Below, one piece after another: positions 12,153 to 64,000 of a stretch of DNA of 64,000 nt; the stretch's first letter is position 1; the number at the start of each line of letters is the position of its first letter. Location of the stretch: positions 1,303-65,302 of the forward strand of contig BJGQ01000014.1 of the NCBI GenBank assembly GCA_014190575.1, in the 5' to 3' direction. Both the position numbers and the translations under genes were made by a program. The stretch is from Bacteroidota bacterium. GTDB taxonomy: Bacteria; Bacteroidota; Bacteroidia; Chitinophagales; UBA10324. Under the pieces are notes generated by a model. The model was not told the DNA's origin, did not search any database, and saw only the letters and a program-made list of their open reading frames with translations.

Positions 12153-14858
12153 TCAATTTACAACAACAATTTTTTGTTGCCATAATTTAATGGCTGAGTG
12201 AACTGATAAAATATACATTCCTGCCGACGCATTCTTCATTGAAAAAGTATTTATGATTGAACCTGAAAATTTTCCATATTGAAATTTTCGGCCTGTTAAA
12301 TCACATACTTCAAAGTCATACATATTTTCATCAGGTAACTGAATACTAATTTTTCCATTGGAAGATTGAACCGGATTTGGAAAAACAATTATTGAATTTT
12401 GTTTTGGAATTTCTTTTAATGAAACCAAATTGAGCGGAGAATCTAAAACCAATACATAAGATGAATATGGATTCAGGGTGTATAAACCTGTAACCATGTT
12501 TCCATCCAAATCACGAAAAACAGAATCAGTACCAAGCGGTACTGTAATTGTATTTGGTGAATAGTTCATTAATAAAACTGACATGTGTGAAGAGTCGTGT
12601 TTGAAAACAGAAACAGGAAACAGATGAATATTATCGAAATAAACGAGAGAATCACTTTTATGTAATTCAAAATTCAACCCAAGTGGGTTACCGTATGTTG
12701 AGGATTGAAAAAAATAATTAAAATCTTTTCGAAAAGTTTGAATCGGGAAATATTTATTAATGCCAATACCATCATAAGGTGCAATTTGCTCAGTGATATC
12801 CGAATGTAAAATTCCGTTTTTAAATCCTGCAGAGGAAAAAGACATTTGATAAAACTGATTTATCTGTAAAGCAAAATCATTTGAAACAGCCTTTGCGTAT
12901 TCATAAGGTATCGTATCAGTTACTTCAAATTTTATACAACCATTATCCATCATCGTTAAGTTGTCGAGTAAAAGTGAATTATTACCAGAAGGTTCAGTAT
13001 TCCATCCATCATAATTATTAGAAAAATTTCCGTTCATAATTAAATCGCTACCAATTGTATCAGTTACATAATAATTCAACCATTCAACATTTGAAACATG
13101 ACTGTTAGAATCCTGCAAGGTTGCCTGCTGCCACAATGGAAGTGAAAATATTTTTTCGCTAACGACAGTATCCGAAACAGATTTTTGATAAATTGGAAAA
13201 TAGTCGTAGGGATTACAGTAATAATTGCTATCTCCTTTCAGAGGAAGAAAATTATTATTTATTCCAGTAAGTTGAATAGATTTTTGTTTATCATTTAATG
13301 AATACAAAATGTTGTGGTTAAATTGAATATTATTAGTTGAGTTTATCGGATCACCATCAGCTATAAAAAGTTGACCATCTTGATTATTATAAATCACATT
13401 TCCCTTTAAAAAATGATTTTGATTATACGGCCCGATATAAATTCCATAGGAATCAGAATTAACTATTGTGTTGTTTATGATTGAGTCGCTCTGAATATTT
13501 TCAGCAAAATATATCCCATAAGAAGATTTTTCAGGTGATGTTGTTCCTTCAATATTTCCAATAGTATTTAAAATAAAATTATTAAAAACAAAACTTGAAC
13601 TAAGACCAAAAAACATCATCCCACCTCCACCATCAAGAAGAAGCATACTATGATTAACAATATTTTCTTCAAACCGATTATAGGAATTATAACATCTAAT
13701 TCCACCATATCCACAACTATCTATAGAATTGTGAATAACAGTATCTAATATCCCTGAAGATAGATGAATTCCTATTCCCTGGCAATAATTTTCAAACCCA
13801 AAACCTCTTTCCAAACCTATTCGTTGAATATGATTATTGGCAATTCTGCAATGGAAAAAAAACAAAGAAAAAATTCCTTCTCCGCCACAATCTTCTATAT
13901 CATTTCCAATTAAACGACAATATGTTGTTGTTTGTTGAAAATTGATTGCCCGTTCTTTACATTTTTTAAAGGAACAATTTTCAATTACAATTCCAACTCC
14001 TACGCCTTGTATATGAATGGCATCTTTAGATTGACCGGAAAATTCAATATTATCTATAATTATATAGCTCAAATCATTAATTGAATAAAAACCATAATCA
14101 ATTACCGAAGCCTGAACATCTGAATTAATTAAACTTGTTCCATTGGGTGGTATAATAAATACCTGGTTTGACAATGTATCACAGAACCATTCATTTGCTG
14201 TATCAAGTTCTGAAAGTTTATTATAAAAAAAGAAACCATAAAACTGTGGAATATTATATTGTGTAGGATTTGTTAATATAATATTCCCTTGAAAATAAGT
14301 ATCGATCTTACTCATTTCATATCTAATTCCACTTGAACGAATTGCAACACTTGCATTGTCCCAATAACCATTTGGATTTGACAATAAATTATTAAAAAGT
14401 AAATTATTGCCATTGGGATGAAAGTTTGAAATAAAACCACTATTTGGATATCGCGCTATTTGCATCCATTTCCCATTGTACCAAATACTTTTTATATTGT
14501 TTGTATCACTAACTGAATAAATATTTCCAGTGGTAGTCCAAGCAGTAAGTTTTTTAAAACCCGAAATTATCGGCAATGTTCCAGTTCCATATCTACCAAA
14601 GTATATTGGAGAATTTATACCTCCTGAATTATGAATAACAATTGTTCCAAAAAATGTATCTCCGCTTTTCAATAAAACAGAATCTCCTGGGAATAGATTT
14701 ATAATATTTAATCTGTCTAAAGTTTGCCAGGCCGAATCAGGAAATATTCCGGAATAATTATCGTCACCTGAACTTGATGACAAATAATAAGTGGTTGCAT
14801 TTACCCTTAGGGAGTTAATACCGAAAATAAAAACAATCGTTAAAATAAATTTCTTCAT
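12153..14858 (-). CDS. secreted right-handed parallel beta-helix repeat protein with T9SS C-terminal sorting domain
   Basis: Signal peptide, many N..I.N..G.GI beta-helix-type repeats, and a C-terminus ..IIVFPNPVQSSNGKISIQL...GMYILSV...KIVVVN typical of the Por_Secre_tail domain. Confidence 0.7.
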   Translation of the reverse strand: MKKFILTIVFIFGINSLRVNATTYYLSSSSGDDNYSGIFPDSAWQTLDRLNIINLFPGDSVLLKSGDTFFGTIVIHNSGGINSPIYFGRYGTGTLPIISGFKKLTAWTTTGNIYSVSDTNNIKSIWYNGKWMQIARYPNSGFISNFHPNGNNLLFNNLLSNPNGYWDNASVAIRSSGIRYEMSKIDTYFQGNIILTNPTQYNIPQFYGFFFYNKLSELDTANEWFCDTLSNQVFIIPPNGTSLINSDVQASVIDYGFYSINDLSYIIIDNIEFSGQSKDAIHIQGVGVGIVIENCSFKKCKERAINFQQTTTYCRLIGNDIEDCGGEGIFSLFFFHCRIANNHIQRIGLERGFGFENYCQGIGIHLSSGILDTVIHNSIDSCGYGGIRCYNSYNRFEENIVNHSMLLLDGGGGMMFFGLSSSFVFNNFILNTIGNIEGTTSPEKSSYGIYFAENIQSDSIINNTIVNSDSYGIYIGPYNQNHFLKGNVIYNNQDGQLFIADGDPINSTNNIQFNHNILYSLNDKQKSIQLTGINNNFLPLKGDSNYYCNPYDYFPIYQKSVSDTVVSEKIFSLPLWQQATLQDSNSHVSNVEWLNYYVTDTIGSDLIMNGNFSNNYDGWNTEPSGNNSLLLDNLTMMDNGCIKFEVTDTIPYEYAKAVSNDFALQINQFYQMSFSSAGFKNGILHSDITEQIAPYDGIGINKYFPIQTFRKDFNYFFQSSTYGNPLGLNFELHKSDSLVYFDNIHLFPVSVFKHDSSHMSVLLMNYSPNTITVPLGTDSVFRDLDGNMVTGLYTLNPYSSYVLVLDSPLNLVSLKEIPKQNSIIVFPNPVQSSNGKISIQLPDENMYDFEVCDLTGRKFQYGKFSGSIINTFSMKNASAGMYILSVHSAIKLWQQKIVVVN

Positions 14859-20907: not shown

Positions 20908-22749
20908 CTACTTACTGATGTTTACGCGGCTGGTAAAGGTGGTTTTTTCGCCTACCAGTACTCGTACCATGTAATTTCCTGAAGTAATGCTTGTTGGCAT
21001 TCCTACATTCTCAGTTAAGTGTCCGCCACTGATTGAGGTGATTTGTGTTTGAACTATTTGTCCTAACATGTTCATCACTTCTATCCGTACATCCTGTGTG
21101 CTTACATCACCCATTTGAAGGTCAATGTTAAACTCACCGGCGTTTGGATTCGGGAACAAGCTTAATGTTCCGTTCTCGGTGGTTATTCCGGTGTTGTTCA
21201 GGCTTTCTTCTGTTTGCTGATCTTCTTCGCGGCAACCAACACTTAAGGTGGTAACAGATTGTATATCCGATGCCGGTCCGAATGACCCGTTACATGAGTT
21301 AGCTCTTACATATACCTGAATCAAGGTGCCGGTTGCGAATATGTTTGCCGATTTTACATTGGTCAAACTTGGGTATCCGCTCCATTGTGCTGCGCCTGGT
21401 TTTACGAATACTGTGTAACCCAACAAGTTCGTTGATGGTACTCCACAATCTCCTACATTCCAGGTGGCTGTTAAGCCATGACAGGTTGCGTGACTCAATA
21501 CTAAGTTCTGTATCTTGTTACAGCCGCCTTTCACTTGTACATTAACTACCTGGGTCATTATTGAATATGGAATTCCGTATGATGGTCCACAGGTCGATAC
21601 TGCATATACTTCCCATACTTGTGGTAATGGTGTATTCAATACAGTATAGTTCATTGATGTTCCGGTTACATTGTAGGTAGTTGGTGCCGATACGGTTGGC
21701 AACACTCTGCGGAAGGTTACACGGTAGGTGTTAGATGGGTTACCACCTAATGCTACTGTGATGCGGTTCGGACAGGTTGATGTTACTTCGTTCGTTGTGA
21801 ATGGTGTTGGTGTCGGACATGTGCTGGTTCCAGGTAATAAATACTGAACTACAGATGGTCCTGCTTGTCCGTATTGTCCTACTGATGGACAGTTACATGC
21901 CTGTAAGTAAACTGATATTGCTGCTCCAGGGTAAGTGTTAGATGTTATTGTATAAGCACTTCCGCCAGCCAGACAACCACTTGCTGTATACGAATTTGAA
22001 ATCTGAAGTAATTTATAATACACTGTATAAGAAGTAGCTCCTGCTGGTATGTTCACTACTGCTGATGTAGCAGTAATGGTACCAAAAGTTGGTGCTGCAG
22101 GTGCTGCACACAATGTTTTAGTGGTACCTGTTCCTGCACTTACACCTGCACATGCGGGTGGATTTGTTAATGTAACAGTAACCGACAAGTTAGTATTTGG
22201 TGTTAAACCTGTTAATACTAATGGTGGAGTTGCATTGGCTAAACTTCCGGTACCAGCTCCAGTCCAAGCGATATTATAACTACCTCCTCCTGCAGGAGAC
22301 CAATTAACAGTTGTTGCTGTTGCAGTTACATTCGTGAATGTTACAATTGGGGTAGATGCAATTTCAACTAACGCTGTATTGGATGAAATATCATAACATA
22401 TTGTTGATTTTGAAATCAATCTGTAGTAATATAACAATGCCGTTGGCGGTGTAGTGTAACTTAAACCATTTGTATTTACTCCAGGAGCAGGATTCCAGGT
22501 TACATTATCTAAAGACCATTGCCATTGATAAACACCGGCAGCTCCAGTAGCAGATAATAGCTTAGTTCCACCAGAGCAAATAATCGATCCAATTGGTGTT
22601 ACAGTTCCAGCCAATGGAGTAGTTGCAACTGGGACAATATTGTATGAGGTACAGCCATTTGCCAAAGTACCAGTTACGGTAAAGAACACATTACTTGGAC
22701 TTGTGGTAGAAACAGTAACTGTTGCTGCAACTCCTCCAACTGGATTCAT
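20908..22749 (-). CDS. T9SS-sorted cell-surface protein with FN3/Ig-like repeats; apparently 5'-truncated (no signal peptide; frame open upstream)
   Basis: Thr/Gly/Ser/Pro-rich repeats (e.g. TATTVNWSPAGGGSYNIAWTG) and a T9SS CTD (LSLFPNPNAGEFNIDLQ...GNYMVRVL). The first ATG gives MNPVGG.. without a signal peptide. A further 67 in-frame codons upstream lack any ATG/GTG/TTG. Confidence 0.65.
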   Translation of the reverse strand: MNPVGGVAATVTVSTTSPSNVFFTVTGTLANGCTSYNIVPVATTPLAGTVTPIGSIICSGGTKLLSATGAAGVYQWQWSLDNVTWNPAPGVNTNGLSYTTPPTALLYYYRLISKSTICYDISSNTALVEIASTPIVTFTNVTATATTVNWSPAGGGSYNIAWTGAGTGSLANATPPLVLTGLTPNTNLSVTVTLTNPPACAGVSAGTGTTKTLCAAPAAPTFGTITATSAVVNIPAGATSYTVYYKLLQISNSYTASGCLAGGSAYTITSNTYPGAAISVYLQACNCPSVGQYGQAGPSVVQYLLPGTSTCPTPTPFTTNEVTSTCPNRITVALGGNPSNTYRVTFRRVLPTVSAPTTYNVTGTSMNYTVLNTPLPQVWEVYAVSTCGPSYGIPYSIMTQVVNVQVKGGCNKIQNLVLSHATCHGLTATWNVGDCGVPSTNLLGYTVFVKPGAAQWSGYPSLTNVKSANIFATGTLIQVYVRANSCNGSFGPASDIQSVTTLSVGCREEDQQTEESLNNTGITTENGTLSLFPNPNAGEFNIDLQMGDVSTQDVRIEVMNMLGQIVQTQITSISGGHLTENVGMPTSITSGNYMVRVLVGEKTTFTSRVNISK

Positions 22750-33390: not shown

Positions 33391-35751
33391 CTATTCCTTC
33401 ACAATTTTCTTCACAGCAAAATTTCCATCTTCCAATAAAACTTTCAGAAAATAAATTCCAGAAGGAAAAGATTTCAGATTTATAATTTGTGAATTAAGAT
33501 TTGGTTTAACACTCAAAACTTCTCTGCCAAAAATATCTGTAACTGTAAGTGTTGCTCCTGAAAACTGCATACTGCCTACAGTCAACTGACTACTGAACGG
33601 ATTCGGATAAACAGCCAACTGCAAATTGCCAACTGCCAACTCATTCACTCCAGTAATTACAATTGTATTGAGTGTGGTGTTAGTGACAACCGGGGAATTA
33701 AAATCAAAATAGATACTTGCGGTGTTTTCTATTTGTGTTCCGATGGCGAGATTTTGTTTTGGTTTTATTCTGTAACTCACATATCCCTTGCTGCCTTCAG
33801 TGTTGCTTCCGCTATCAGGTAAATTAATATTGACAAAATTGAAGCGCACTTTATTTCCGAACAGTTGTACCATTGGGTCGAATGAAGAAGAGAGCAATTG
33901 AAAAGTGCTTTCATCCAAATCAGAATCGAGTGTATCGAGAATCTGAATGTGTTGCGCAGGTGCAGTGCCGGTGTTCTGAAAATGAATGGTGTAAGTAAGC
34001 CAGTTGTTGAACGGATAATTCAAATCTCCAATGGGACTTACTTCTTTTTCATTCGGGTCGAAAGAATTTGAAACTGAAAAGCAATGCGTGAGTGCGTTGT
34101 TTAAAATATTATTATCTCCAGTTGTTGGTGTAACGCTCACATCAAAACAAATTGCATCTCCTATTTGCGCAGTTGAATCAGTGAGCACATTGAATGCAAA
34201 ATCAGTTGCTGCATTTACCAATGAAAAATCTGCAATACTGTAAGTAAGTGTATCACCATTTACTGTTGGTGTAAGTGCTCCAGCTAATGGAGAAACATAA
34301 TTTGCCGGACCATTGATTACAATTTTTACTTGTCCGCTGATGCCGGAACTGCAAGACACATTGTAAATGGATTGAACAATGTCTCCGGCAATAATCCACA
34401 TTGCAGTTGTGTCTTGAGGAAATAAAATGCTATTTCTTACTACATTCCAAACTCCATTGTCATACCCTGGTTTACAAATGAATCGAAAATTAATTCCGTA
34501 ATCCATAGAGTCAACTGGAGTTAAGGAAGTTTGAAAAGTGTCATTGTTTGGACAAACAATGTCAAATGGAAAATCCAGAGTATCAACAGAAGTGAAATAA
34601 TTTCCTAATGGTTCATCAAAGGAAAATTCACCTAATGCATTACTTGACACTTGTTCAATTAAATTAAATGTTGAGTCAAATAATTTTAGTTTCGAATTAT
34701 ATATGCCAGAACCATCATTTGCGGTTATACAATCATTATCAAAATCTGAAAATACAGACCCCTTCATGTTCCAAGCCACATTGCAATTATTGCTATTAAA
34801 AAAATTACAAATCGGAACTGTATCAACTGCCAGGTTGCTTCCGACATGTTGAATCAAATTAGGTAAGCAGTTAATTCCTGTGCCTGTAATATAAAAATTC
34901 AATGTGCTACCAAATAAAAACTCAAACGAAGGCAGGCACATTAACTGCGGATTATTCATTACACATACCATACTCATTGTATCATTGAAAGGAGGTAACT
35001 CGGTAATGTTATTGTTTGCACAATTTAAGTATCCCAAATGAGGAGGAAGTGGTGGAATACTTGTTAGCTGATTATAAGAACAACCCAACTCACTTAATGA
35101 ATTTGGAAGCTGTGGTAAATTAGTCAATTGATTAGATTGACAGAACATATATTTAATTGAATTTGAAAGAAAAGGTAAATTTGTCAATTGATTATTATGG
35201 CAATAAAATTTCTTAACTACTGATGGAACATTTGGTAATGATGTTATTAAATTAAAGGGACAATAAATCACATGCAAAGAATCCGGAAAATTTGGAATTG
35301 TTGCAAGTTGATTGTGATCACAATAAAGTAATATGAGTGAGTCCGGTAACGAGGGTAAAGAGGTCAGATTGTTAGTAGCACATCTAAAAGTTTTAATCGA
35401 ACTGCAGAGAGACGGTAGGTTATTTAAACCATCATTTGCTAGTTCAAGAAATGTTAAATTCTGAGGAAGGGCAGGAACCACCGCATTATTCAAACCATCA
35501 GCAGTTAATGAATCAAGGTTATCAAAGTATTGAATTCCAAAAAGATTCTGAATGTTTGTCTGCCAGTTTATATCAATAATATTTTCATTGACAATTGAGC
35601 TACAAGTTGTATCCATTTGATTCCCGCTCATGCAAGCAGGATAATTTGCTTGCAGCCACGCAACAAAATTCGCATCAGGTATAGTCACCCATTGCGCTTT
35701 AGAAAATGAAAAACTAAAAATGAAAAAAGAAAAGAGGAGAAATTTCTTCAT
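33391..35751 (-). CDS. secreted leucine-rich-repeat (LPX-type, 20-aa repeat) protein with T9SS C-terminal sorting domain
   Basis: Signal peptide ..SFSKAQ. About 8 tandem repeats of L(T)xLPxLPxSLxxLxCxxNQ span aa ~95-265 (nt ~34956-35466). The C-terminus reads LAVYPNPFSSQLTV...GIYFLKVL. Confidence 0.75.
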   Translation of the reverse strand: MKKFLLFSFFIFSFSFSKAQWVTIPDANFVAWLQANYPACMSGNQMDTTCSSIVNENIIDINWQTNIQNLFGIQYFDNLDSLTADGLNNAVVPALPQNLTFLELANDGLNNLPSLCSSIKTFRCATNNLTSLPSLPDSLILLYCDHNQLATIPNFPDSLHVIYCPFNLITSLPNVPSVVKKFYCHNNQLTNLPFLSNSIKYMFCQSNQLTNLPQLPNSLSELGCSYNQLTSIPPLPPHLGYLNCANNNITELPPFNDTMSMVCVMNNPQLMCLPSFEFLFGSTLNFYITGTGINCLPNLIQHVGSNLAVDTVPICNFFNSNNCNVAWNMKGSVFSDFDNDCITANDGSGIYNSKLKLFDSTFNLIEQVSSNALGEFSFDEPLGNYFTSVDTLDFPFDIVCPNNDTFQTSLTPVDSMDYGINFRFICKPGYDNGVWNVVRNSILFPQDTTAMWIIAGDIVQSIYNVSCSSGISGQVKIVINGPANYVSPLAGALTPTVNGDTLTYSIADFSLVNAATDFAFNVLTDSTAQIGDAICFDVSVTPTTGDNNILNNALTHCFSVSNSFDPNEKEVSPIGDLNYPFNNWLTYTIHFQNTGTAPAQHIQILDTLDSDLDESTFQLLSSSFDPMVQLFGNKVRFNFVNINLPDSGSNTEGSKGYVSYRIKPKQNLAIGTQIENTASIYFDFNSPVVTNTTLNTIVITGVNELAVGNLQLAVYPNPFSSQLTVGSMQFSGATLTVTDIFGREVLSVKPNLNSQIINLKSFPSGIYFLKVLLEDGNFAVKKIVKE

Positions 35752-40155: not shown

Positions 40156-40647
40156 ATGAGAATCCTCTACACATCAATTGCACTACTTTTTATCTTTAAT
40201 TTAATAACAAGCGCGCAAAGTATTTCACCGCAGGTTTTCGGTTCGGCTGGAAATTATTATGCTGTTGCCGGAAACTCTTTATCATTTACAATTGGCGAAA
40301 GTTTAACAACAACTCTTACAAATTCCAATTCCAAAATCACACAAGGATTTCAGCAACCTTCGTACACTGCAACAGCAATTACTGAAGTTGAAAATCCAAT
40401 TTATGATTTAAGTATCTATCCGAATCCGGCGAGCAATGTGATTACAATTTTGAATAACGGAATTAGTTTTTCGAACAACACACAATTATTTCTTATTGAT
40501 GTATTGGGAAGAAGATTGATTGAACAACAACTCAACAACAAACAAACATTAATTGACCTGCAGCAAGTCGCAGCCGGCACTTACTTTATTGTGATTGAAG
40601 AAAACGGTCACGATTCATTCACGCACAAAATCACCAAAGTCCAATAA
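40156..40647 (+). CDS. small secreted protein with T9SS C-terminal sorting domain
   Basis: Signal peptide ..ITSAQ, a ~60-aa N-domain, then LSIYPNPASNVITIL...GTYFIVIE. Confidence 0.65.
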   Translation: MRILYTSIALLFIFNLITSAQSISPQVFGSAGNYYAVAGNSLSFTIGESLTTTLTNSNSKITQGFQQPSYTATAITEVENPIYDLSIYPNPASNVITILNNGISFSNNTQLFLIDVLGRRLIEQQLNNKQTLIDLQQVAAGTYFIVIEENGHDSFTHKITKVQ

Positions 40648-56401: not shown

Positions 56402-56902
56402 ATGTATCAAATTAAAAATCTCATTTTAAAATTGTCATTAACATTTTTTAGTATTCTGATTTTTTCTTGCGCAGAAAACAAGCATGTTTGCAATTCGAAA
56501 ACTCAAATCCAAACTTTAACCATGCAAAAAAAAATAATCCAAACCGACAAATCTCCAGCGCCAATTGGCCCATATAGTCAGGCTGTAATGGTGGGTAACC
56601 TACTATTTGTTTCAGGTCAAGTGGCCATCATTCCAGAATCAGGAAAAATAATTCAAGGTGATATAGCTACTGAAACTATGCAGGTTATGAATAACATTCA
56701 TGCAATTCTTGTACAAGCAGGAATGGATTTCGAAAATATTGTAAAGACAAGCATATTTTTAAAAAACATGGATGACTTTGCTAAAGTGAATGAAATTTAC
56801 GGTTCAAATTTTAGTGGCGATTTTCCAGCCCGCGAAACAGTTCAAGTTTCAAGATTACCAAAAGATGTCAATGTTGAAATTTCAGTTGTCGCTGCAAAAT
56901 AA
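56402..56902 (+). CDS. ridA: RidA/YjgF-family reactive-intermediate deaminase, possibly with lipoprotein signal
   Basis: APIGPYSQAV..GNLLFVSGQ...ARETVQVSRLPKDVNVEI. The longest ORF adds 40 aa containing LIFSCAENK (a lipobox). An alternative ATG at 56522 gives a canonical 126-aa protein. Confidence 0.8.
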   Translation: MYQIKNLILKLSLTFFSILIFSCAENKHVCNSKTQIQTLTMQKKIIQTDKSPAPIGPYSQAVMVGNLLFVSGQVAIIPESGKIIQGDIATETMQVMNNIHAILVQAGMDFENIVKTSIFLKNMDDFAKVNEIYGSNFSGDFPARETVQVSRLPKDVNVEISVVAAK

Positions 56903-56905
56903 ATT

Positions 56906-57781
56906 TTACTTAGAACGACGAACAAGGTAAACGCCAAAAAGAATTATTGCCAATGCGAAGAAATCAATCAACCCGATTGGTTCTCCGTCAGCAACTCCCC
57001 AACCGAGCGCAACCAGTGGCATAAAATAAGTTACAGTACTTCCGAATAATGCGCCGGTGGTTTGTATTAAATAATTGTACATAACCAATGCAATTGAAGT
57101 TCCGAAAGCACCAAGTATCATGCAACTGCTCAATGAATACATAGCTCCTTCAGTGAGCAATCGTTGAGTGAAATCAGTAGTCATTAACCAGCCAAATGCA
57201 AAAGGGCCCATGAATGCCATCGCAGTTGCTGTCATTAAAATGGGATTACAACCTTGCAGGTATTTTGTAATAATGTTATTGCTGAGGCCGTATAAAGCAG
57301 TTGCAATAATTATCAATGTTGCATAATAAATATTTGATTCAGTACCTCCTTCGTTATTAAAAAGTATTAGCATAACTGAACCGCCAAAGCCAACCAATAT
57401 CCCAATTATCTTCAGTGCGTTGGATTTCATTTTAAAAAATAGCAATCCAATAAATAAAACGAACAAAGGAGTTAATGCATTTAAAATTCCAGCAAGCGAA
57501 CTGCTTACCTGTGTTTCGGCTTCAGTAAATAAAAATGCCGGAATACCACTTCCGGTTAAGCCCATCAATATCATGTAAACAACTTTCTTCCTGTCAATTT
57601 CTCTGAATCGAATTAATAAAAACGGAAGTAATACCAGACACGCAGTTGAAATTCTGATGGCAGCAACTTGTGCCGATGAGAAAACGAGCAAACCTTTTTT
57701 CATCAATATAAAACTGCTTCCCCAAATCAGTACAAGAACTATATAAATGAAGAGATGATATGGGGATAATTTTTTTGTCAT
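56906..57781 (-). CDS. EamA/DMT-family transporter
   Basis: Ten hydrophobic helices with two EamA-like halves. The protein is 291 aa. Confidence 0.8.
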   Translation of the reverse strand: MTKKLSPYHLFIYIVLVLIWGSSFILMKKGLLVFSSAQVAAIRISTACLVLLPFLLIRFREIDRKKVVYMILMGLTGSGIPAFLFTEAETQVSSSLAGILNALTPLFVLFIGLLFFKMKSNALKIIGILVGFGGSVMLILFNNEGGTESNIYYATLIIIATALYGLSNNIITKYLQGCNPILMTATAMAFMGPFAFGWLMTTDFTQRLLTEGAMYSLSSCMILGAFGTSIALVMYNYLIQTTGALFGSTVTYFMPLVALGWGVADGEPIGLIDFFALAIILFGVYLVRRSK

Positions 57782-57869: not shown

Positions 57870-59135
57870 CTACTGCTTCACAAATTTTTCTGTAATGCAA
57901 TCTTTTCCGTTTTGAAACCGCACGAGATAAATTCCCGAACTCATCAAGGAAACATCAAATGATTGCTGATGAATTGAATTTCCAGAAACATAATTTATAG
58001 TTTGTAATTGCTGACCTGATAAACTGTAAATGGAAAGTGTGCAATTTGCATTTTCAGTTGTTGCTGTTACAATCATCATCTCATTTCCCTGAACAGGATT
58101 CGGAAAAATTTTAATTGACGAACTGTTTTCTGAAAGCGAAGCAGTTTCAGTTTTAGGAGCAGTGCCGGGAGTGGAGAGCCACTTCACTGCATTCACTAAT
58201 AATTTTTCGTGCGAACCACCAACTGCCGAATGAAAGGACGAATACAATGCATCATTCGTATCACCGGTGCCATCATCAGCAGGAGAACTGTCGCCGAGAC
58301 CACAAACTTTTCCACTCATGTAATTACTTGCGCAAAACATAACCTGTGTGTTGCCGGTATTTGATGCACCGGTTTTATAAACCAAACCTTTCACTGTGCT
58401 GTTGTTCGCTGTGTTGAGCATGATACTTGTTCCGTTGTTGAACTGAACAGATGTAACATTTCCAAAACTTCCATGCAAAATCGGATCGGTTGGCAGATTC
58501 GGAATGTTCGAAGTGGTTTGCGAAAAATTCTGCAGATCGAAAACAAAACCAAAAGCATTATTCTGAATCGTGTTGTTGGTGATTAAATCATTCCAGATGG
58601 CAGGTGAATCCCAACCATCATTGTTTCTGTCACTAACTGTGTGATCCGAAATCATCAGTAAGCCGCCACCGTTTTTTACAAAATTCATAATCGCAGTTTT
58701 TTCACTTGTTGTAAAACGAATATTTGGTTCATCCACAATAAAAACTTTGTAGTTTGCCAAATCTTGGGTGTTGGATGTTACACCATAAGTGATCAAACCA
58801 TTGTATGGAAGTGTTTCAACACCAAAACCCTGCTTCACTAAATCAATGGCGAAATAAGAAAGCGCACCTTTCCAATATGTTTCGGAAGTTAATGATGTGA
58901 TATTACTTTGGGCAGGTGTTGGATTTCGCTGTGGGTTCGATTCATTACCTGAACCAACAACCATTGCACCCCCGCTACCTGTTCCGATATTAAATAAATC
59001 AGCATCCATTACCCAATCTGCATTGCCCGCCATCTCTGCCGATGAGGCATCGAATAATACTTTAATGGTTTGTGCCTTTATCTGCGCGGTGAAAACTGTT
59101 ACACTTAAACCAATTGAAAAAAGAATTTTGTTCAT
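57870..59135 (-). CDS. secreted protein of unknown function with T9SS C-terminal sorting domain
   Basis: Signal peptide ..IKAQ and a ~300-aa N-domain (..KVFIVDEPNIRFTTSEKTAIMNFVKNGGGLLMISDH..). The C-terminus reads IKIFPNPVQGNEMMIV...GIYLVRF. Confidence 0.65.
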   Translation of the reverse strand: MNKILFSIGLSVTVFTAQIKAQTIKVLFDASSAEMAGNADWVMDADLFNIGTGSGGAMVVGSGNESNPQRNPTPAQSNITSLTSETYWKGALSYFAIDLVKQGFGVETLPYNGLITYGVTSNTQDLANYKVFIVDEPNIRFTTSEKTAIMNFVKNGGGLLMISDHTVSDRNNDGWDSPAIWNDLITNNTIQNNAFGFVFDLQNFSQTTSNIPNLPTDPILHGSFGNVTSVQFNNGTSIMLNTANNSTVKGLVYKTGASNTGNTQVMFCASNYMSGKVCGLGDSSPADDGTGDTNDALYSSFHSAVGGSHEKLLVNAVKWLSTPGTAPKTETASLSENSSSIKIFPNPVQGNEMMIVTATTENANCTLSIYSLSGQQLQTINYVSGNSIHQQSFDVSLMSSGIYLVRFQNGKDCITEKFVKQ

Positions 59136-59361: not shown

Positions 59362-60108
59362 TTACTGCAAAACTATTTTCTTATAAAGGTTCATATAATT
59401 CATAACTACCTGCACCAGGTAAACTCCCTTTGAAAGAAAATCCAGATGCAGATTCATTTCATTTTCTCCTGCTACAGCATTTGCACTTTGCTTGTAAACC
59501 ATTTTACCATTCACATCTGAAACGATTAAATCATAAGACTGATTGCGGACAGCATTGAAACGCATCTGAGTTAATCCTTCTGAAGGGTTGGGATAAAATT
59601 CAATAGATGAATTTTTATTTTCTGCTTCGTATATGCCATTTGGTGCATGAATACATTCCGTTATTTTAACAGAGCAGACATCGCCATTCAGATAAACCAA
59701 AACATTGTTTAAATCATCTTTACAAAATTGTCCTGATAAAATAGTAAAGCGGATTTTTACCAGCGGAGTATTATTCGCGAAACTTGTGATACTGAAAGAA
59801 GTGAAGTAAACAGTTGAATCGGTCATGTTGTAATTCGAAGTAATCGATAAATAACTTGCCAGCTTCAGAATGGTATCGTACGAAAAATTTGCCTGATTGT
59901 ATTTGAAAGAAAAATCAAGTGCATTTATAGTATCACCCGATAAAAAGTAAACAGGAAATTCAACAAAACCGACACCGGAATCAGCGTGCGCAATATCAAA
60001 AACAACAGTATCCTGCGCATCAATAATGCTCATGTCATTTGGTGATTGGGCAAATGAAATAAAAGAAGAAAAAATTATGGCAACTATCAGTACAATCTGT
60101 TTTTTCAT
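59362..60108 (-). CDS. secreted cohesin-like module protein with T9SS C-terminal sorting domain
   Basis: Signal peptide ..SFAQ. The module VGFVEFPVYFLSGDTINALDFSFKYNQANFSYDTI resembles the first strands of cohesins (..IPVyF..g..i...DF...YD...L). The C-terminus reads IEFYPNPSEGLTQMRF...GVYLVQV. Confidence 0.55.
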   Translation of the reverse strand: MKKQIVLIVAIIFSSFISFAQSPNDMSIIDAQDTVVFDIAHADSGVGFVEFPVYFLSGDTINALDFSFKYNQANFSYDTILKLASYLSITSNYNMTDSTVYFTSFSITSFANNTPLVKIRFTILSGQFCKDDLNNVLVYLNGDVCSVKITECIHAPNGIYEAENKNSSIEFYPNPSEGLTQMRFNAVRNQSYDLIVSDVNGKMVYKQSANAVAGENEMNLHLDFLSKGVYLVQVVMNYMNLYKKIVLQ

Positions 60109-60121
60109 TTGATTTTAATTT

Positions 60122-60155
60122 AAAAAAACCCACCCCGAAAAGTTGGGATGGGTTT
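60122..60155 (-). terminator. Rho-independent terminator of the 60174..63311 gene
   Basis: AAACCCA(CCCC)-GAAAAGTT-(GGGA)TGGGTTT hairpin at 60126-60155, followed on the minus strand by T7. Confidence 0.7.
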
Positions 60156-60173
60156 ATAATGTTTAAGAAAAAA

Positions 60174-63100
60174 TTACTTCTGTATCACAACCTTTTTGGT
60201 TGTAACAAAATTGGTGTTAGATACCTGAAGCAGGTAAACACCATTCGCTAGATTGGCAGTATTTATCTGTAGTTTCTCATTTGCATTTACATTATCAGAT
60301 TTGAACAGCAAACTTCCATTCACGCTGAATAACTGTATAGTTGCATCTTCTGATGAAACAACATTTAAAACATCACTTGCCGGATTAGGGAAAATATTCA
60401 CATTGTAATCGGAAGCCGATTCGTCAGTGTTAATTTCCATTCCAACGCGATCTCCATTCAGATAACCTTCGAGTGAATTAAAATCAGATTTTGTAACATC
60501 ACCCTTAGTGGTAAAACGAACAGTAGCAACCGGTTTTCCCAATGAATAATTCTGCAAACTGTTTGAAGTGAAACGCAAAGTGTTATCACCTGCATTGAAA
60601 TTACCAAGTGTTTCAATGTTTTCGTCAGTACTGATAATTGAATTAAACGAAAGTTTTGATTCATTGAATTTCACTGCGAAATCCAGTGCGTTAACTGAAC
60701 CTGCTGCTGATGCATAAACCGGAACATCAATATAACCATCAACTGTAACAGCTTTGGTTAAATCTAAAACTACTTTTCCTGCTTCGTTGTCAATTTTTAA
60801 ATTACCGTTTCCTGCAGTTGAGTAATTACCATTCACATCTCCGATCAAAATGCCTTTGTAAGTTTCGGTAATAAGTGTAACACAATCACTCGAAGTATCA
60901 GCACTTAAGTTTGGCAATGGAAGACAGAAAGGAACAACCGGTACTCTGTTTTTGTAAGCGCCTACTCCATCATCGTTAGGATAAGTCAAAGAAACACGGT
61001 AAGCCAAATCATTATTCAATGTAGTTAAGTCAATGAACAACCAATCTTTTGAAAGCGGACCGGTTGAAGTTCCATTTGCATTGTAGTTCCATGCTTGTTT
61101 CATTTCTGGATTTATTAAAACTGTACGCTGATTAATTTGAGAAACATCACCTGCGCTGACAACACCATCCAGATTCACATCCATTGCAATTAACTGGAAA
61201 ATAGAAGGAGTGAAAGTTGCATCATTGATTAACACTCGTCTTGCAAGAAATGCATCAAAGCCATTAACAACCGGTTGAATACTTGTTGCCGAAGCAATGT
61301 CTTTTTTAATGGTAAGGTTTGCACCGTTGTTAGTGCTGTAAGTAAAATGACCTGTTAAATCAGGTTGAGTTGCAGTTGCTGATAAGTTAGAGCAAGTATT
61401 GTTGTTGCCATAAATATTTGTAATCAGGTATTGAGCTGCATTACCTGAGTTGTAAGGCATCGCTGCATTGTTCGACCAGAAACTTAACAGACCAACAAAT
61501 GAACTGTCTTTGTAAGTATTGTACTTACCCGCATCAGCAGCCACTTGTTGCACGCCTGTGATATAACTTTCCTGCAATGAAACAACGCTGAAGTCAGCGG
61601 TATCAATTGCAACGAAGTTTACTGTTTTGCTGAACTCAACACAGAAAATATTTCCAGTACCTGCGAAGAAAGTATTAGCAGGAGCATTGCCATTGAAGAA
61701 TAAAGAAATATTTACATTGTGATTTACCGCATCAATGCTATTGATAACATCAACATAAGCCGGGTTAATCAAATTACTTGAAACTGTTACAATACCGGTT
61801 GGTGCTACTTTGTTTGCATCATAGTGCATCACCACATCATATCCGATCACATTAGCTACCGGAGAAAAAGCATCCACCTTCATGCAAAAAATACTTGGCT
61901 CGCAAGTGTTTGTTGCATTTACAATTTTGTATGGAAGTGCATTCGGATCAGCAAGACTTATAGATATTGTGCTTGAAGTTGTTGAAGCACCATTGTTGTC
62001 GGTTACCACAGCTTTTATCTGGCGGTTGCCGAATGGTGAGCCACTTGTCCAACCGAAACTGTATGGAGAAGTATTATCAATTCCAACTGAAACATTATCT
62101 ACAAAAAATTCGACCTGAGAAACTGTACCATCCGCATCATTTGCATTGGCAGTAATATTTACAACAGCAGGTGCAACAAAAGAAGCTCCGTTTGAAGGTG
62201 AAGTAATCGAAACTGTAGGAGCAACATTGTTGCCGACAATAACTGTTACAGCAGATGAAGTTGTTTGTCCGCCATTGTTATCGGTAGCTCTTGCTTTTAA
62301 TGCATGTGTTCCCACAACAGCAGTCCAGTTAAAAGAATATGGAGAAGTGTTATCGCTTCCAACCACAACATTGTCAACCAAAAATTCAACATTGGTAACT
62401 GAGCCATCTGCATCATTTGCAGTAGCTGCAATTGCAACTGTACTTGGCAAAACAAAAGTTGCATTGTTTGCAGGTGAAGTTATACTTACAGTGGGCAAAG
62501 TATTCGGCACACCAAAAGTTCCTGTCAAACTCGGAATGGTGATTTCAGCACCCACCGGATTTGAAGAAACAAAATTTTGTACTCCTGCACTTGGAGTTCC
62601 AATCTGAAGATTTAATTCAAAATGAAAAATTCCTGTTGTTGTAAACTGACCAATCAATACACGGTTAGCAGCAGTTGGACCTGTTGCACCACCCAGTACT
62701 GCAATAGAACCATTTGATGTAGTGAAGTTTCCACCCACTTGGCTTATACCATCAAAAACACCAAGATCTCCATTTCCCGTATTGGTTAATCCAACAAAAG
62801 TGACTGATGCAGGTGATCCTGCAATCATACCATCTTGTGTGTTAATCGCAATTCCTGCTGAAGCATCGTTATTCTGAAGCATAATTGGTACTGTATTGTT
62901 AAGAAGCGCTCCGTTGCTGTCTTCTGTTTTAAGAACAGCAACATTGCCTGCAGCATTTCCTCCCATTGAAAACCAAGAGTCAACCATCACCGAATTTTTT
63001 TTGGTATTGTTTACACTAATTCCGGTTGGCGTTGTACTTCCGTAATCTTCATTGTTAAAAAAGGTAGTAGATGAAGTGATCAGTAAAGTGTGATTGGCTA

Positions 63101-63311
63101 CACCATACGCAGCTTGTAAGTTGTAACCCGGAAGAAGATCAGCATACACTCTCCATGTAACTGAACCAACCGGAAGAGCACCTATACTTCCTGTAGCATC
63201 TACACTATTTGATACATAGTATTTTTCTACTGTAATATTTTCCAACCCGTTTTGGGCATTGGCAAAAGCTGCAAGAAAAAGCAAAGCCGTGCCGAGTATT
63301 ATTTTTTTCAT
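60174..63311 (-). CDS. large secreted multi-module protein: 2 Ig-like repeats, 2 cohesin-like modules, internal dockerin-like loop, T9SS sorting domain
   Basis: Signal peptide ..ANAQ. Tandem ~91-aa repeats PTVSITSP...ANDADG.V..VEF.VDN...G.DNTSPYSF.W. Cohesin-like stretches GYDVVMHYDANKVAPTG and GYIDVPVYASAAGSVNALDFAVKFNESKLSF. Dockerin-like DVNLDGVVSAGDVSQINQ. The C-terminus reads NIFPNPASDVLNVVS...GVYLLQV. Confidence 0.6.
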   Translation of the reverse strand: MKKIILGTALLFLAAFANAQNGLENITVEKYYVSNSVDATGSIGALPVGSVTWRVYADLLPGYNLQAAYGVANHTLLITSSTTFFNNEDYGSTTPTGISVNNTKKNSVMVDSWFSMGGNAAGNVAVLKTEDSNGALLNNTVPIMLQNNDASAGIAINTQDGMIAGSPASVTFVGLTNTGNGDLGVFDGISQVGGNFTTSNGSIAVLGGATGPTAANRVLIGQFTTTGIFHFELNLQIGTPSAGVQNFVSSNPVGAEITIPSLTGTFGVPNTLPTVSITSPANNATFVLPSTVAIAATANDADGSVTNVEFLVDNVVVGSDNTSPYSFNWTAVVGTHALKARATDNNGGQTTSSAVTVIVGNNVAPTVSITSPSNGASFVAPAVVNITANANDADGTVSQVEFFVDNVSVGIDNTSPYSFGWTSGSPFGNRQIKAVVTDNNGASTTSSTISISLADPNALPYKIVNATNTCEPSIFCMKVDAFSPVANVIGYDVVMHYDANKVAPTGIVTVSSNLINPAYVDVINSIDAVNHNVNISLFFNGNAPANTFFAGTGNIFCVEFSKTVNFVAIDTADFSVVSLQESYITGVQQVAADAGKYNTYKDSSFVGLLSFWSNNAAMPYNSGNAAQYLITNIYGNNNTCSNLSATATQPDLTGHFTYSTNNGANLTIKKDIASATSIQPVVNGFDAFLARRVLINDATFTPSIFQLIAMDVNLDGVVSAGDVSQINQRTVLINPEMKQAWNYNANGTSTGPLSKDWLFIDLTTLNNDLAYRVSLTYPNDDGVGAYKNRVPVVPFCLPLPNLSADTSSDCVTLITETYKGILIGDVNGNYSTAGNGNLKIDNEAGKVVLDLTKAVTVDGYIDVPVYASAAGSVNALDFAVKFNESKLSFNSIISTDENIETLGNFNAGDNTLRFTSNSLQNYSLGKPVATVRFTTKGDVTKSDFNSLEGYLNGDRVGMEINTDESASDYNVNIFPNPASDVLNVVSSEDATIQLFSVNGSLLFKSDNVNANEKLQINTANLANGVYLLQVSNTNFVTTKKVVIQK
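61950..62498 (-). repeat. intragenic tandem duplication (2 x ~273 nt) encoding Ig-like domains
   Basis: The two protein repeats align over ~90 aa with many identities (TVSITSP, ANDADG, VEF.VDN, DNTSPYSF, TDNNG..TTSS). Confidence 0.7.
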
Positions 63312-63344
63312 TTTTATTTTAGTTTTTATTTGGGGTTTTATTTT

Positions 63345-64000
63345 TTATTGGCAAGATTGATTAAACTGACCAAGCAATTGCAAGAAGTCAACATTATTGG
63401 TGACACCATCCTGATTAATATCTGTTGGGCATGGCTGCATTCCGTTTACAGTATTCAACAAAGTATTATAGGACCATGAAGACAACCAGTTCTGACCGGT
63501 AGAGGCAAATGCGCCTCTGTATGGTGCAGTAGAAAAGAAGCCATCAACCGGAGTTGAAATAAGTGTACCTGTTAAAGCTGGATTTGGAACCGCATCAACT
63601 TTGTGTGAAATAACATTGGTGTTGTTGTTTACTGTAAATACATAATCAAAACCGGGAACAGATGAAACAGTTTTGTTATTATCAGTAGTGTAAAACTGCG
63701 CAGTGTCTGAAGAAATAACATTTGCAGAACTGCTACCAACTGTAATCGGGTTGGTGCAATTAATGAAAGTGTTACATTTTACCTTCAAGCTATTGGTTGT
63801 ATTTCCACCTGTGTTAGCCCAGTTATGATATGCTTCACTTGATACACCGTTAATTGAATTTACTCTGGTACCCATTGATTTAACCATGTTGTAACCATTT
63901 TTAAAGTTGGCGAATACTGAATTATAAATTTCTCCTTCAGTTAATTCCTTCGCATTGATACCTGCAATAGAACTGTTGTCGGCAGTAAGTGTGGTTTTGC
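63345..64000 (-). CDS. secreted protein fragment ending in a Cys-bracketed single dockerin-like repeat (5' end outside window)
   Basis: The frame is open from the listed ATG (63887) up to the window edge (..KTTLTADNSSIAGINAKELTEGEIYNSVFANFKNGYNMVKS..), so the gene starts beyond 64000. The C-terminus reads CPTDINQDGVTNNVDFLQLLGQFNQSCQ. No T9SS CTD is present. Confidence 0.6.
   Translation of the reverse strand, partial: KTTLTADNSSIAGINAKELTEGEIYNSVFANFKNGYNMVKSMGTRVNSINGVSSEAYHNWANTGGNTTNSLKVKCNTFINCTNPITVGSSSANVISSDTAQFYTTDNNKTVSSVPGFDYVFTVNNNTNVISHKVDAVPNPALTGTLISTPVDGFFSTAPYRGAFASTGQNWLSSWSYNTLLNTVNGMQPCPTDINQDGVTNNVDFLQLLGQFNQSCQ

Follow-up and report, generated by a model that had tools for sequence, protein, structure and literature searches.

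Genes A, B and C are three neighbouring minus-strand open reading frames (ORFs), so placed by the initial annotation and by the ORF list, at the end of a 64,000-nt stretch (the window) of contig BJGQ01000014.1 (GCA_014190575.1) from a member of the Bacteroidota, with a G+C content of 36.4%. They appear to form a conserved cohesin-dockerin gene cluster, in which the product of gene A would be tethered, through its C-terminal tail, to proteins that a type IX secretion system (T9SS) anchors. We give this reading a probability of about 50%. The initial annotation, made from the letters of the window, had proposed a surface assembly of this kind. Translation located all three ORFs, their coordinates and the quoted peptides as described, and the observation of ORFs, motifs and coordinates is confirmed; the interpretation as a whole is plausible and only partly supported. 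The three genes and their modules are the following (CTD, C-terminal sorting domain of T9SS cargo; HMM, hidden Markov model).

63345..>64000, minus strand: gene A, 3′ part (last 217 codons), open to the window end, no T9SS CTD
63351..63431, minus strand: tail of A, a Cys-bracketed single F-hand, CPTDINQDGVTNNVDFLQLLGQFNQSC, half of a GC-type dockerin
60174..63311, minus strand: gene B, 1045 residues, scaffoldin-like T9SS cargo
62502..63254, minus strand: N-domain of B (residues 20–270), a fold without match, present in 90/90 genes downstream of A
62007..62495, minus strand: two Ig-like repeats of B (Pfam Big_7, E = 3.4e-38)
61497..61943, minus strand: cohesin module 1 of B (residues 457–605), with GYDVVMHYDANKV...
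61281..61493, minus strand: X-like linker module of B (residues 607–677), a block conserved in all B orthologues
60822..61280, minus strand: internal dockerin-type module of B with its conserved extension (residues 678–830)
60420..60803, minus strand: cohesin module 2 of B (residues 837–964), paralogue of the C module, also with HMM matches
60183..60395, minus strand: type A T9SS CTD of B (PF18962, 1.1e-14; TIGR04183, 2.7e-12)
59362..60108, minus strand: gene C, 248 residues, signal peptide, cohesin and type A T9SS CTD
60049–60108, minus strand: signal peptide of C
59644–60039, minus strand: cohesin of C (residues 24–155)
59371–59595, minus strand: type A T9SS CTD of C (residues 172–246)

The intergenic gaps are 33 bp between A and B and 65 bp between B and C. 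Pfam and NCBIfam scans agree with the earlier assignment of T9SS CTDs to B and C and of none to A. B and C are Sec-exported, and the type A CTDs that they carry assign them to the T9SS cargo. In what follows, L-numbers denote loci and P-numbers proteins of relatives.

Full-length A is predicted from its relatives to be a secreted beta-helix protein of roughly 557 residues. Complete orthologues have 557–620 residues and a Sec-type signal peptide and lack a lipobox, and homologues carry a precomputed Pfam assignment to PF28492 (Beta_helix_4). The body of A has no match in the Pfam copy used, which was without PF28492, and full-length A has no relative in the PDB. When a profile of the whole protein (41 sequences, 558 positions) was searched against the PDB, the only match was a dockerin, 2y3n_B, which is the Cel48 dockerin of B. 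cellulosolvens.

The C-terminal end of A reads ...MQPCPTDINQDGVTNNVDFLQLLGQFNQSCQ / ...CPTDINQDGVTNNVDFLQLLGQFNQSCQ before the stop codon. The tail has a length of about 27–28 residues and consists of one calcium loop and helix between two cysteines. Its positions C5, D8, D12, G13, D19 and C31 are invariant among 32 tails, with N10 kept in at least 90% of them. The tail profile finds 2y3n_B as its best match in the PDB (E = 7.6e-11), with both dockerin repeats aligned, and the top 14 PDB matches are all dockerins, with EF-hand proteins ranking lower. By these profile comparisons the tail, together with its helix, is closer to the repeats of dockerins than to EF-hands in general, which bears out the proposal that A ends in a single Cys-bracketed F-hand of dockerin type. 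The pattern D-x-[ND]-x-D-G-x(5)-D with an amphipathic helix after it, together with similarity to solved dockerins, is present both in this tail and in the internal dockerin of B.

The tail covers one half of a known model. NF041540, the NCBIfam model named 'GC-type dockerin domain-anchored protein', aligns with the tail of A at model positions 36–67 (14.5 bits, E = 0.036; cut-off 29), and it is matched by 9/31 A relatives with a best E of 0.009. A full-length GC-type match of at least 29 bits over 67 positions is not reached by A, and its tail has one F-hand repeat in place of two in tandem of about 22 residues each. The score against Dockerin_1 (PF00404), 13.9 bits with E = 0.066, is also below the gathering score.

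The Cys-bracketed tail is kept in 94/97 A-family ORFs from other genomes, and a T9SS CTD is absent from A of the window and from 94/97 A relatives. The tail exceptions are a frameshift in L001, a degenerate loop in L101 and a paralogue in L055. The last of these (L055 1176–2849, minus strand) is 31–32% identical to A over the body and carries a type A T9SS CTD exactly at the position of the tail, which suggests that tail and CTD are interchangeable at the C-terminus in the A family. The A orthologue of L001 (9346–10963; metagenome-assembled genome (MAG) GCA_016707305.1) is broken up into three ORFs, which marks a pseudogene or else an error in the assembly.

The tail is also found outside the A family. 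In sister loci a doubled version of the motif, joined by C-x-G-C, ends otherwise unrelated proteins that have no CTD. It occurs on Ig_3 proteins of 184–199 residues encoded between B and C (L010, L012, L058, L065, L083 and L086) and on two large secreted proteins whose genes lie a few kb at most from the A-B-C cluster. One of these, of 2194 residues (L032 1965–8549), contains a metallophosphatase (calcineurin-like phosphoesterase) domain, and the other, of 1740 residues (L082 11236–16458), contains LTD (lamin-tail), PKD and Ig domains. The doubled tails span NF041540 from position 3 or 4 to 67, with 33.1 bits in L010, above the cut-off of 29, 24.8 bits in L032 and 24.5 bits in L082. The gathering score of Dockerin_1 is reached in L065 (26.6 bits), L096 (23.4 bits) and P0233 (24.3 bits). 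Judged by the sequences of its carriers, the tail is a portable C-terminal module, as expected of a docking tag. NF041540 classes the doubled form as an anchoring domain, and a literature search on GC-type dockerins found no paper.

A doubtful alternative is that the tail is a self-contained C-terminal cap held by calcium and a disulfide, or a hand for homodimerisation, and that the cohesins are nearby merely by shared function in an uptake locus. EF-hands that occur singly generally form pairs with another hand, and the single F-hand of A is an incomplete dockerin. The tail is fully conserved in loci that have no cohesins, and both of its cysteines are lost together in P0053, consistent with an internal pair. 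However, ending unrelated passengers, whether single or doubled, is the behaviour of a tag and not of a cap specific for one fold. The replacement of the T9SS CTD by the tail in the A family, its greater likeness to dockerin repeats than to generic EF-hands, and the classification of the doubled form by the NCBI curators also speak against a cap.

Gene C carries one very divergent cohesin. Its sequence alone finds only CTD matches in the PDB, a profile built from nine module sequences reaches cohesins there at the margin (E about 0.09), and its score against Pfam Cohesin (PF00963), 18.1 bits with E = 0.0033, is below the gathering score of 24.1 bits. The family gives a clearer result. A word-indexed search returned few relatives of C, and a profile search of 1.84 billion representatives returned 582, mostly of about 250 residues with signal peptide, module and CTD. 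Pfam Cohesin matches 79/123 aligned members at E ≤ 0.1, with a best E of 7.3e-10, and the T9SS CTD is found in 122/123. The AlphaFold2 (AF2) model of C has a mean confidence (predicted local distance difference test, pLDDT) of 92.3, and in a Foldseek search cohesins rank first: 2w1n (E = 9e-9), then 3l8q, 4dh2, 2jh2, 2vo8 and 2xdh, with template-modelling (TM) scores of 0.6 to 2jh2 and 2xdh. The earlier suggestion of a cohesin in C, made from VGFVEFPVYFLSGDTINALDFSFKYNQANFSY (residues 46–77), therefore agrees with both the family and the fold.

The module of C and the C-terminal module of B are 29% identical (E = 2e-26), and they are paralogues, as had been proposed; the corresponding peptide of B, GYIDVPVYASAAGSVNALDFAVKFNESKLSF, is at residues 859–889. 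Within B the order is signal peptide, N-domain, two Big_7 repeats, cohesin, X, dockerin, cohesin and CTD. Two Ig-like repeats had been noted, and Pfam Big_7 indeed finds two stretches, the first at residues 273–340 and the second at about 365–435, the latter range set by eye.

B of the window has no match to Pfam Cohesin. Relatives exceed the cut-off in both of its cohesin types: within module 1 in P0233 (25.2 bits, residues 240–344) and P0059 (40 bits, best stretch residues 183–263), and within modules of the module 2 type in P0248 (25.7 bits) and P0208 (48.8 bits). Module 1 contains GYDVVMHYDANKVAPTG at residues 490–506 (nt 61794–61844). Its profile has no match among PDB sequences, so that its assignment rests on the Pfam matches in relatives and on the fold. 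By hhalign no similarity was detected between the profiles of modules 1 and 2; with no PDB sequence match for module 1 either, the cohesins fall into two very divergent classes, module 1 on one side and module 2 with C on the other.

The internal dockerin-type module of B scores 16.0 bits (E = 0.014) against Dockerin_1 at residues 682–728, and 60/68 B relatives match this model, the best at 4.2e-7. Its profile finds 12 matches in the PDB, of which 11 are dockerins and the twelfth is a weak calcium-binding carrier. The matches include 4fl4_A (the best, E = 0.0018), 4dh2_B, CelD and the ScaB dockerin, and the aligned stretch begins where the first calcium loop ends and extends over helix 1 to the second loop and its helix. 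In the alignment of B sequences the first loop is degenerate (VNGFDA) and the second canonical (DVNxDGxxSAGD), so two tandem F-hand repeats are not seen here either. A conserved extension of about 90 residues follows, with an orphan GDVNGNY at its end. The helices lie at model positions 229–239, 249–255 and 265–275. The initial annotation had described a lone dockerin-like loop at about nt 61120–61195. The dockerin type stands; the loop belongs to a whole three-helix module, and the canonical calcium loop, DVNLDGVVSAGDVSQINQ / DVNLDGVVSAGD, is placed at residues 711–728, nt 61128–61181.

The middle of B was modelled as a unit. The AF2 model of residues 452–960, made with 87 sequences, has a pLDDT of 94.4 and a predicted TM score (pTM) of 0.85. 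Foldseek gives as its best matches the CipA Coh9-X-DocII structures of C. thermocellum, 4fl4_C and 3kcp_A, and many single cohesins follow at TM 0.70–0.75, with 5nrm_A, 3ul4_A and 1g1k_A at 0.73–0.75; the module of B that gives the best match is a putative assignment. The models of C and of the B middle both show the nine-stranded beta-sandwich (jelly-roll) fold of cohesins by AF2 and Foldseek. With Pfam matches above the cut-off in relatives and cohesins first by Foldseek, the cohesin-like character given earlier to the B modules is upheld.

The cluster is conserved widely. Gene A has 216 relatives among GTDB species representatives, all of them Bacteroidota MAGs, and the closest are L007 (92% identity), then L002 and L003, among representatives that do not include the window's own genome. 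The taxonomic labels of these loci disagree, L007, a groundwater MAG, being labelled Chitinophagaceae and the other close loci Flavobacteriales or Crocinitomicaceae. Synteny of A-B(-C) extends over more than 90 loci of Bacteroidota MAGs, mostly from freshwater, groundwater and wastewater. In genome loci with at least 4.5 kb of sequence downstream of A, cohesin genes follow immediately in 39/52, and when the search starts from the cohesin in metagenome contigs, A and B lie upstream in 14/14 loci with room for them. The three genes co-occur from either starting gene. All 90 genes found downstream of A begin with the N-domain of B, which is the only invariant feature there, and 56 of them have the complete order of N-domain, cohesin, X, dockerin, cohesin and CTD. 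The X-like module is always located between cohesin 1 and the dockerin; the cohesin 1-X-dockerin block is invariably fused, and the module order is fixed.

This conservation bears on the possibility that the cohesin-like and dockerin-like modules are evolutionary relics or spacers without specific interaction, which we regard as very improbable. The window proteins do score below the curated cut-offs, and non-cellulosomal cohesin and dockerin modules of unassigned role are widespread (Peer et al. 2009, as reported in PMC8542988). Against this, more than 90 loci show strong conservation of both cysteines and calcium ligands, the order of modules does not vary, and A, B and C co-occur whichever gene is taken as the start.

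Relatives show how the parts are recombined, in arrangements typical of cohesin-dockerin systems. In L030 (14534–17536) and L087 (6051–8555) a cohesin of the C class is joined to 7–9 PKD repeats and a type B (CHU_C) CTD; cohesins thus appear, by sequence, to be anchored by both T9SS CTD types. ORFs of about 1000 residues with the same N-terminal cohesin were also seen in L050, L051, L060, L063, L064 and L077, the domain scan having covered L030 and L087. Relatives with three cohesins in one protein exist. Adaptors of about 380 residues without a CTD, made of signal peptide, cohesin, X and dockerin, are represented by P0248, P0252 and P0261, and the gene of P0248 (L105 10001–11149) is located between two B-type genes.

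In L007, L001, L014, L055 and L105 the cluster extends further upstream, where a TonB-dependent receptor is encoded together with paralogues of the N-domain. A locus has as many as four of these paralogues around the receptor gene, most of them bearing T9SS CTDs; they were located in L007 (1382–2188, 2355–3452 and 6618–7898), L014, L055 and L105 (263–1570). At least L007, L001 and L105 also have a Fib_succ_major lipoprotein, and L105 has a small outer-membrane barrel, as does L014 when judged by its sequence. Since the cluster adjoins a TonB-dependent receptor in relatives, the assembly would most likely serve substrate capture or processing at the cell surface.

A model of the assembly can be proposed from these parts. 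The established model of T9SS has CTD-bearing cargo attached to the cell surface, and B and C would be attached in this way. The tail of A, calcium-bound and probably closed by a disulfide, would dock on a cohesin of the class formed by C and module 2, with the C cohesin as the best candidate partner, and the docking would tether A to T9SS-anchored proteins. The internal X-dockerin of B would either pack on cohesin 1 of B or link B-type and adaptor proteins.

The choice of partner for the tail was approached by co-variation, using distance matrices and partial Mantel tests over 44 non-redundant loci. The distances of the tail correlate with those of the C cohesin at r = 0.58, and with all other modules controlled the partial r is 0.32 (p = 0.001). 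The correlation with the body of A itself is 0.31–0.35, and both the N-domain of B and the C cohesin exceed the B cohesins and the A body. Shared descent inflates such distance correlations too much to decide the partner, and the co-variation is therefore a lead only.

Several results weigh against docking of the tail on a cohesin. The tail correlates better with the N-domain of B than with any cohesin (r = 0.76, partial 0.63), also within the major clade (r = 0.72), where the ranking of the correlations is the same. Downstream of A, 17/77 complete genes consist of N-domain and CTD without cohesin, X or dockerin, and the A tail is fully conserved there; among the genome loci counted above, 13/52 have no cohesin genes after A. 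One example of A with no neighbouring cohesin is the complete MAG OZ260085.1. Known dockerins need two repeats, and the tail has one. In the window, every cohesin and dockerin module of the three genes scores below the Pfam and NCBIfam cut-offs, and the docking itself is a prediction from sequence. A has a Sec-type signal, no lipobox and no CTD, and by known rules it would stay periplasmic while the cohesins are exported. Its body is matched neither in the Pfam copy used nor in the PDB.

Some of these results suggest another partner. The tail may bind the N-domain that B shares with its paralogues, or else some other protein encoded at the TonB-receptor locus, with the cohesins serving the internal X-dockerins only, in contacts between B proteins, between B and adaptor, or within one molecule. 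In favour of this are the presence of the N-domain in every gene found after A, including the 17 without cohesins, the correlations given above, and the invariable fusion of cohesin 1, X and dockerin into one confidently modelled unit. We nevertheless consider it unlikely. Its correlations are confounded by shared descent, and a tail of 28 residues has few states. The N-domain, with a conserved pattern over about 260 residues (NGLE.I.VEKYYVS...LPVGS.TYR.Y.D..PGY...), has no Pfam match, no PDB match by sequence or profile, and no recognisable fold or precedent, and we know of no dockerin-type module that binds such a non-cohesin domain. The extra GC-dockerin proteins occur only in cohesin-bearing loci (8/8), which is weak evidence, as the expectation is already 78%.

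If A is tethered to the T9SS-anchored cohesins, its route outward might be that of a hitch-hiker. CTD-less proteins ending in a GC-type dockerin or half-dockerin would dock in the periplasm on T9SS cargo that carries cohesins and pass the translocon as passengers. Such a route would explain the interchange of tail and CTD at the C-terminus of the A family, and the Sec signals without an outer-membrane targeting signal in A, the small Ig proteins, the large enzymes and the adaptor. It would also explain why these genes are always interleaved with CTD-bearing cohesin genes. We hold it to be decidedly unlikely and state it as a conjecture.

The cluster resembles several known systems. In clostridial scaffoldins (CipA with its C-terminal Coh9-X-DocII, 4FL4 and 3KCP) cohesin, X and dockerin have the same order as in the middle of B, of which they are the best structural matches. 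As in cellulosomes, the cohesins are on surface-anchored proteins and the dockerin types at the C-termini of unanchored secreted proteins, and the cohesin-X-dockerin adaptor of relatives, which has no CTD, recalls the adaptor scaffoldins of cellulosomes. The differences from the clostridial systems, including the anchoring OlpC (4DH2), are also clear. The host is Gram-negative, and the anchor is a T9SS CTD (type A, with type B in relatives) instead of a surface-layer homology (SLH) domain or sortase signal. There are one to three cohesins per protein, the tail of the cargo has one Cys-bracketed repeat and not two, the cargo is a predicted beta-helix protein and not a recognised glycoside hydrolase, and the sequences are too divergent for the Pfam cut-offs. 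Neither a carbohydrate-binding module (CBM) nor a glycoside hydrolase family was found in A, B or C with Pfam and NCBIfam; other carriers of the tail have Metallophos, LTD or Ig domains. The three genes make a compact T9SS-anchored cohesin-dockerin cluster, conserved widely and including a half-dockerin tail, and by its defining features it is not a cellulosome.

Non-cellulosomal cohesins give a second comparison. Those of C. perfringens GH84C/GH33 (2W1N, 2JH2, 2VO8) and of Archaeoglobus fulgidus (2XDH) are top or high structural matches to C and are likewise outside cellulose degradation. Unlike the cohesins here, they have as partners dockerins of two repeats, on complexes of toxins or glycosidases, and none is linked to T9SS. 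With NF041540, the doubled tails of the sister loci match end to end and the tail of A only in the second half, and the model names no partner.

A case of the same logic is Candidatus Stygibacter of the Cloacimonadota, for which a scaffoldin-like protein of 3,755 residues with tandem cohesins and a conserved surface-attachment CTD, together with dockerin enzymes, was inferred from sequence (PMC8542988). There too a cohesin carrier with a T9SS-type CTD stands beside dockerin-tagged secreted proteins. It differs in its phylum, in having canonical modules at the Pfam level on known hydrolases or peptidases, and in the large number of its tandem cohesins, which come with CBMs. The cluster described here is compact, with three genes, a half-dockerin tail, an X-dockerin inside B and a link to a TonB-receptor locus. 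Dockerins and few cohesins have been reported in Bacteroidetes, with no system defined (PMC6487960; PMC10266427). The initial annotation knew of no characterised T9SS-anchored cohesin scaffold paired with a single-repeat, Cys-bracketed dockerin; this claim of novelty has to be narrowed, because the type of tail already has its NCBIfam model and a cohesin scaffoldin with a T9SS CTD had already been inferred in the Stygibacter work.

Two further features lie beside the cluster in the window.

60126..60155, minus strand: terminator-like hairpin in the gap between B and C, with an 11-bp stem, 6 G-C pairs and a T run, from a consensus scan only
57870..59135, minus strand: gene D, a T9SS cargo protein of 421 residues with a type A CTD (TIGR04183/PF18962) above the cut-offs

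The hairpin is strong, and C may therefore be transcribed separately or attenuated. Gene D, 226 bp from C, was noted earlier as a further T9SS protein downstream, which is correct; it also has a weak GldG/ABC_transp_aux-like stretch. As a neighbour it is not conserved. The only orthologue found, 83% identical, follows C in L003 (6126–7394), and in the close relatives L007, L002 and L082 the corresponding position lacks it. D was therefore rejected as a member of the system and is regarded as a variable insertion, a neighbour only. Flanking genes for an EamA-type transporter and a RidA-like protein (window nt 56402–57781) are collinear with L007 14797–16251.

A search of the 64-kb window found no further tail or cohesin, and among window ORFs of at least 100 residues the loop D.N.DG.....D occurs twice, in A and in B. 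With the similarity of the C module to that of B and the retention of the tail in other genomes, this shows the features to be more than accidental. Four further window ORFs (12153–14858, 20908–22749, 33391–35751 and 40156–40647) have a type A T9SS CTD by an HMM made from the C family, with no cohesin or dockerin module; T9SS cargo is dense in this genome.

Gram-positive cellulosomes are assembled by the pairing of cohesin with dockerin, a classic system of high affinity, and surface display in the Bacteroidota goes mainly through T9SS. The cluster joins the two, and gene A alone is found in at least 216 species-representative genomes. If A is tethered to the cohesin carriers as proposed, environmental Bacteroidota would build modular surface complexes on T9SS-anchored scaffolds beside genes for TonB-dependent uptake, and the orphan 'GC-type dockerin' domain of NCBI would gain a partner. 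A single disulfide-bracketed F-hand would then suffice as a minimal docking tag, which could be useful for protein engineering. The same reading would pose to the T9SS field the question of how a partner without a CTD reaches the surface, and hitch-hiking, if true, would mean that Bacteroidota can display proteins lacking their own sorting domain.

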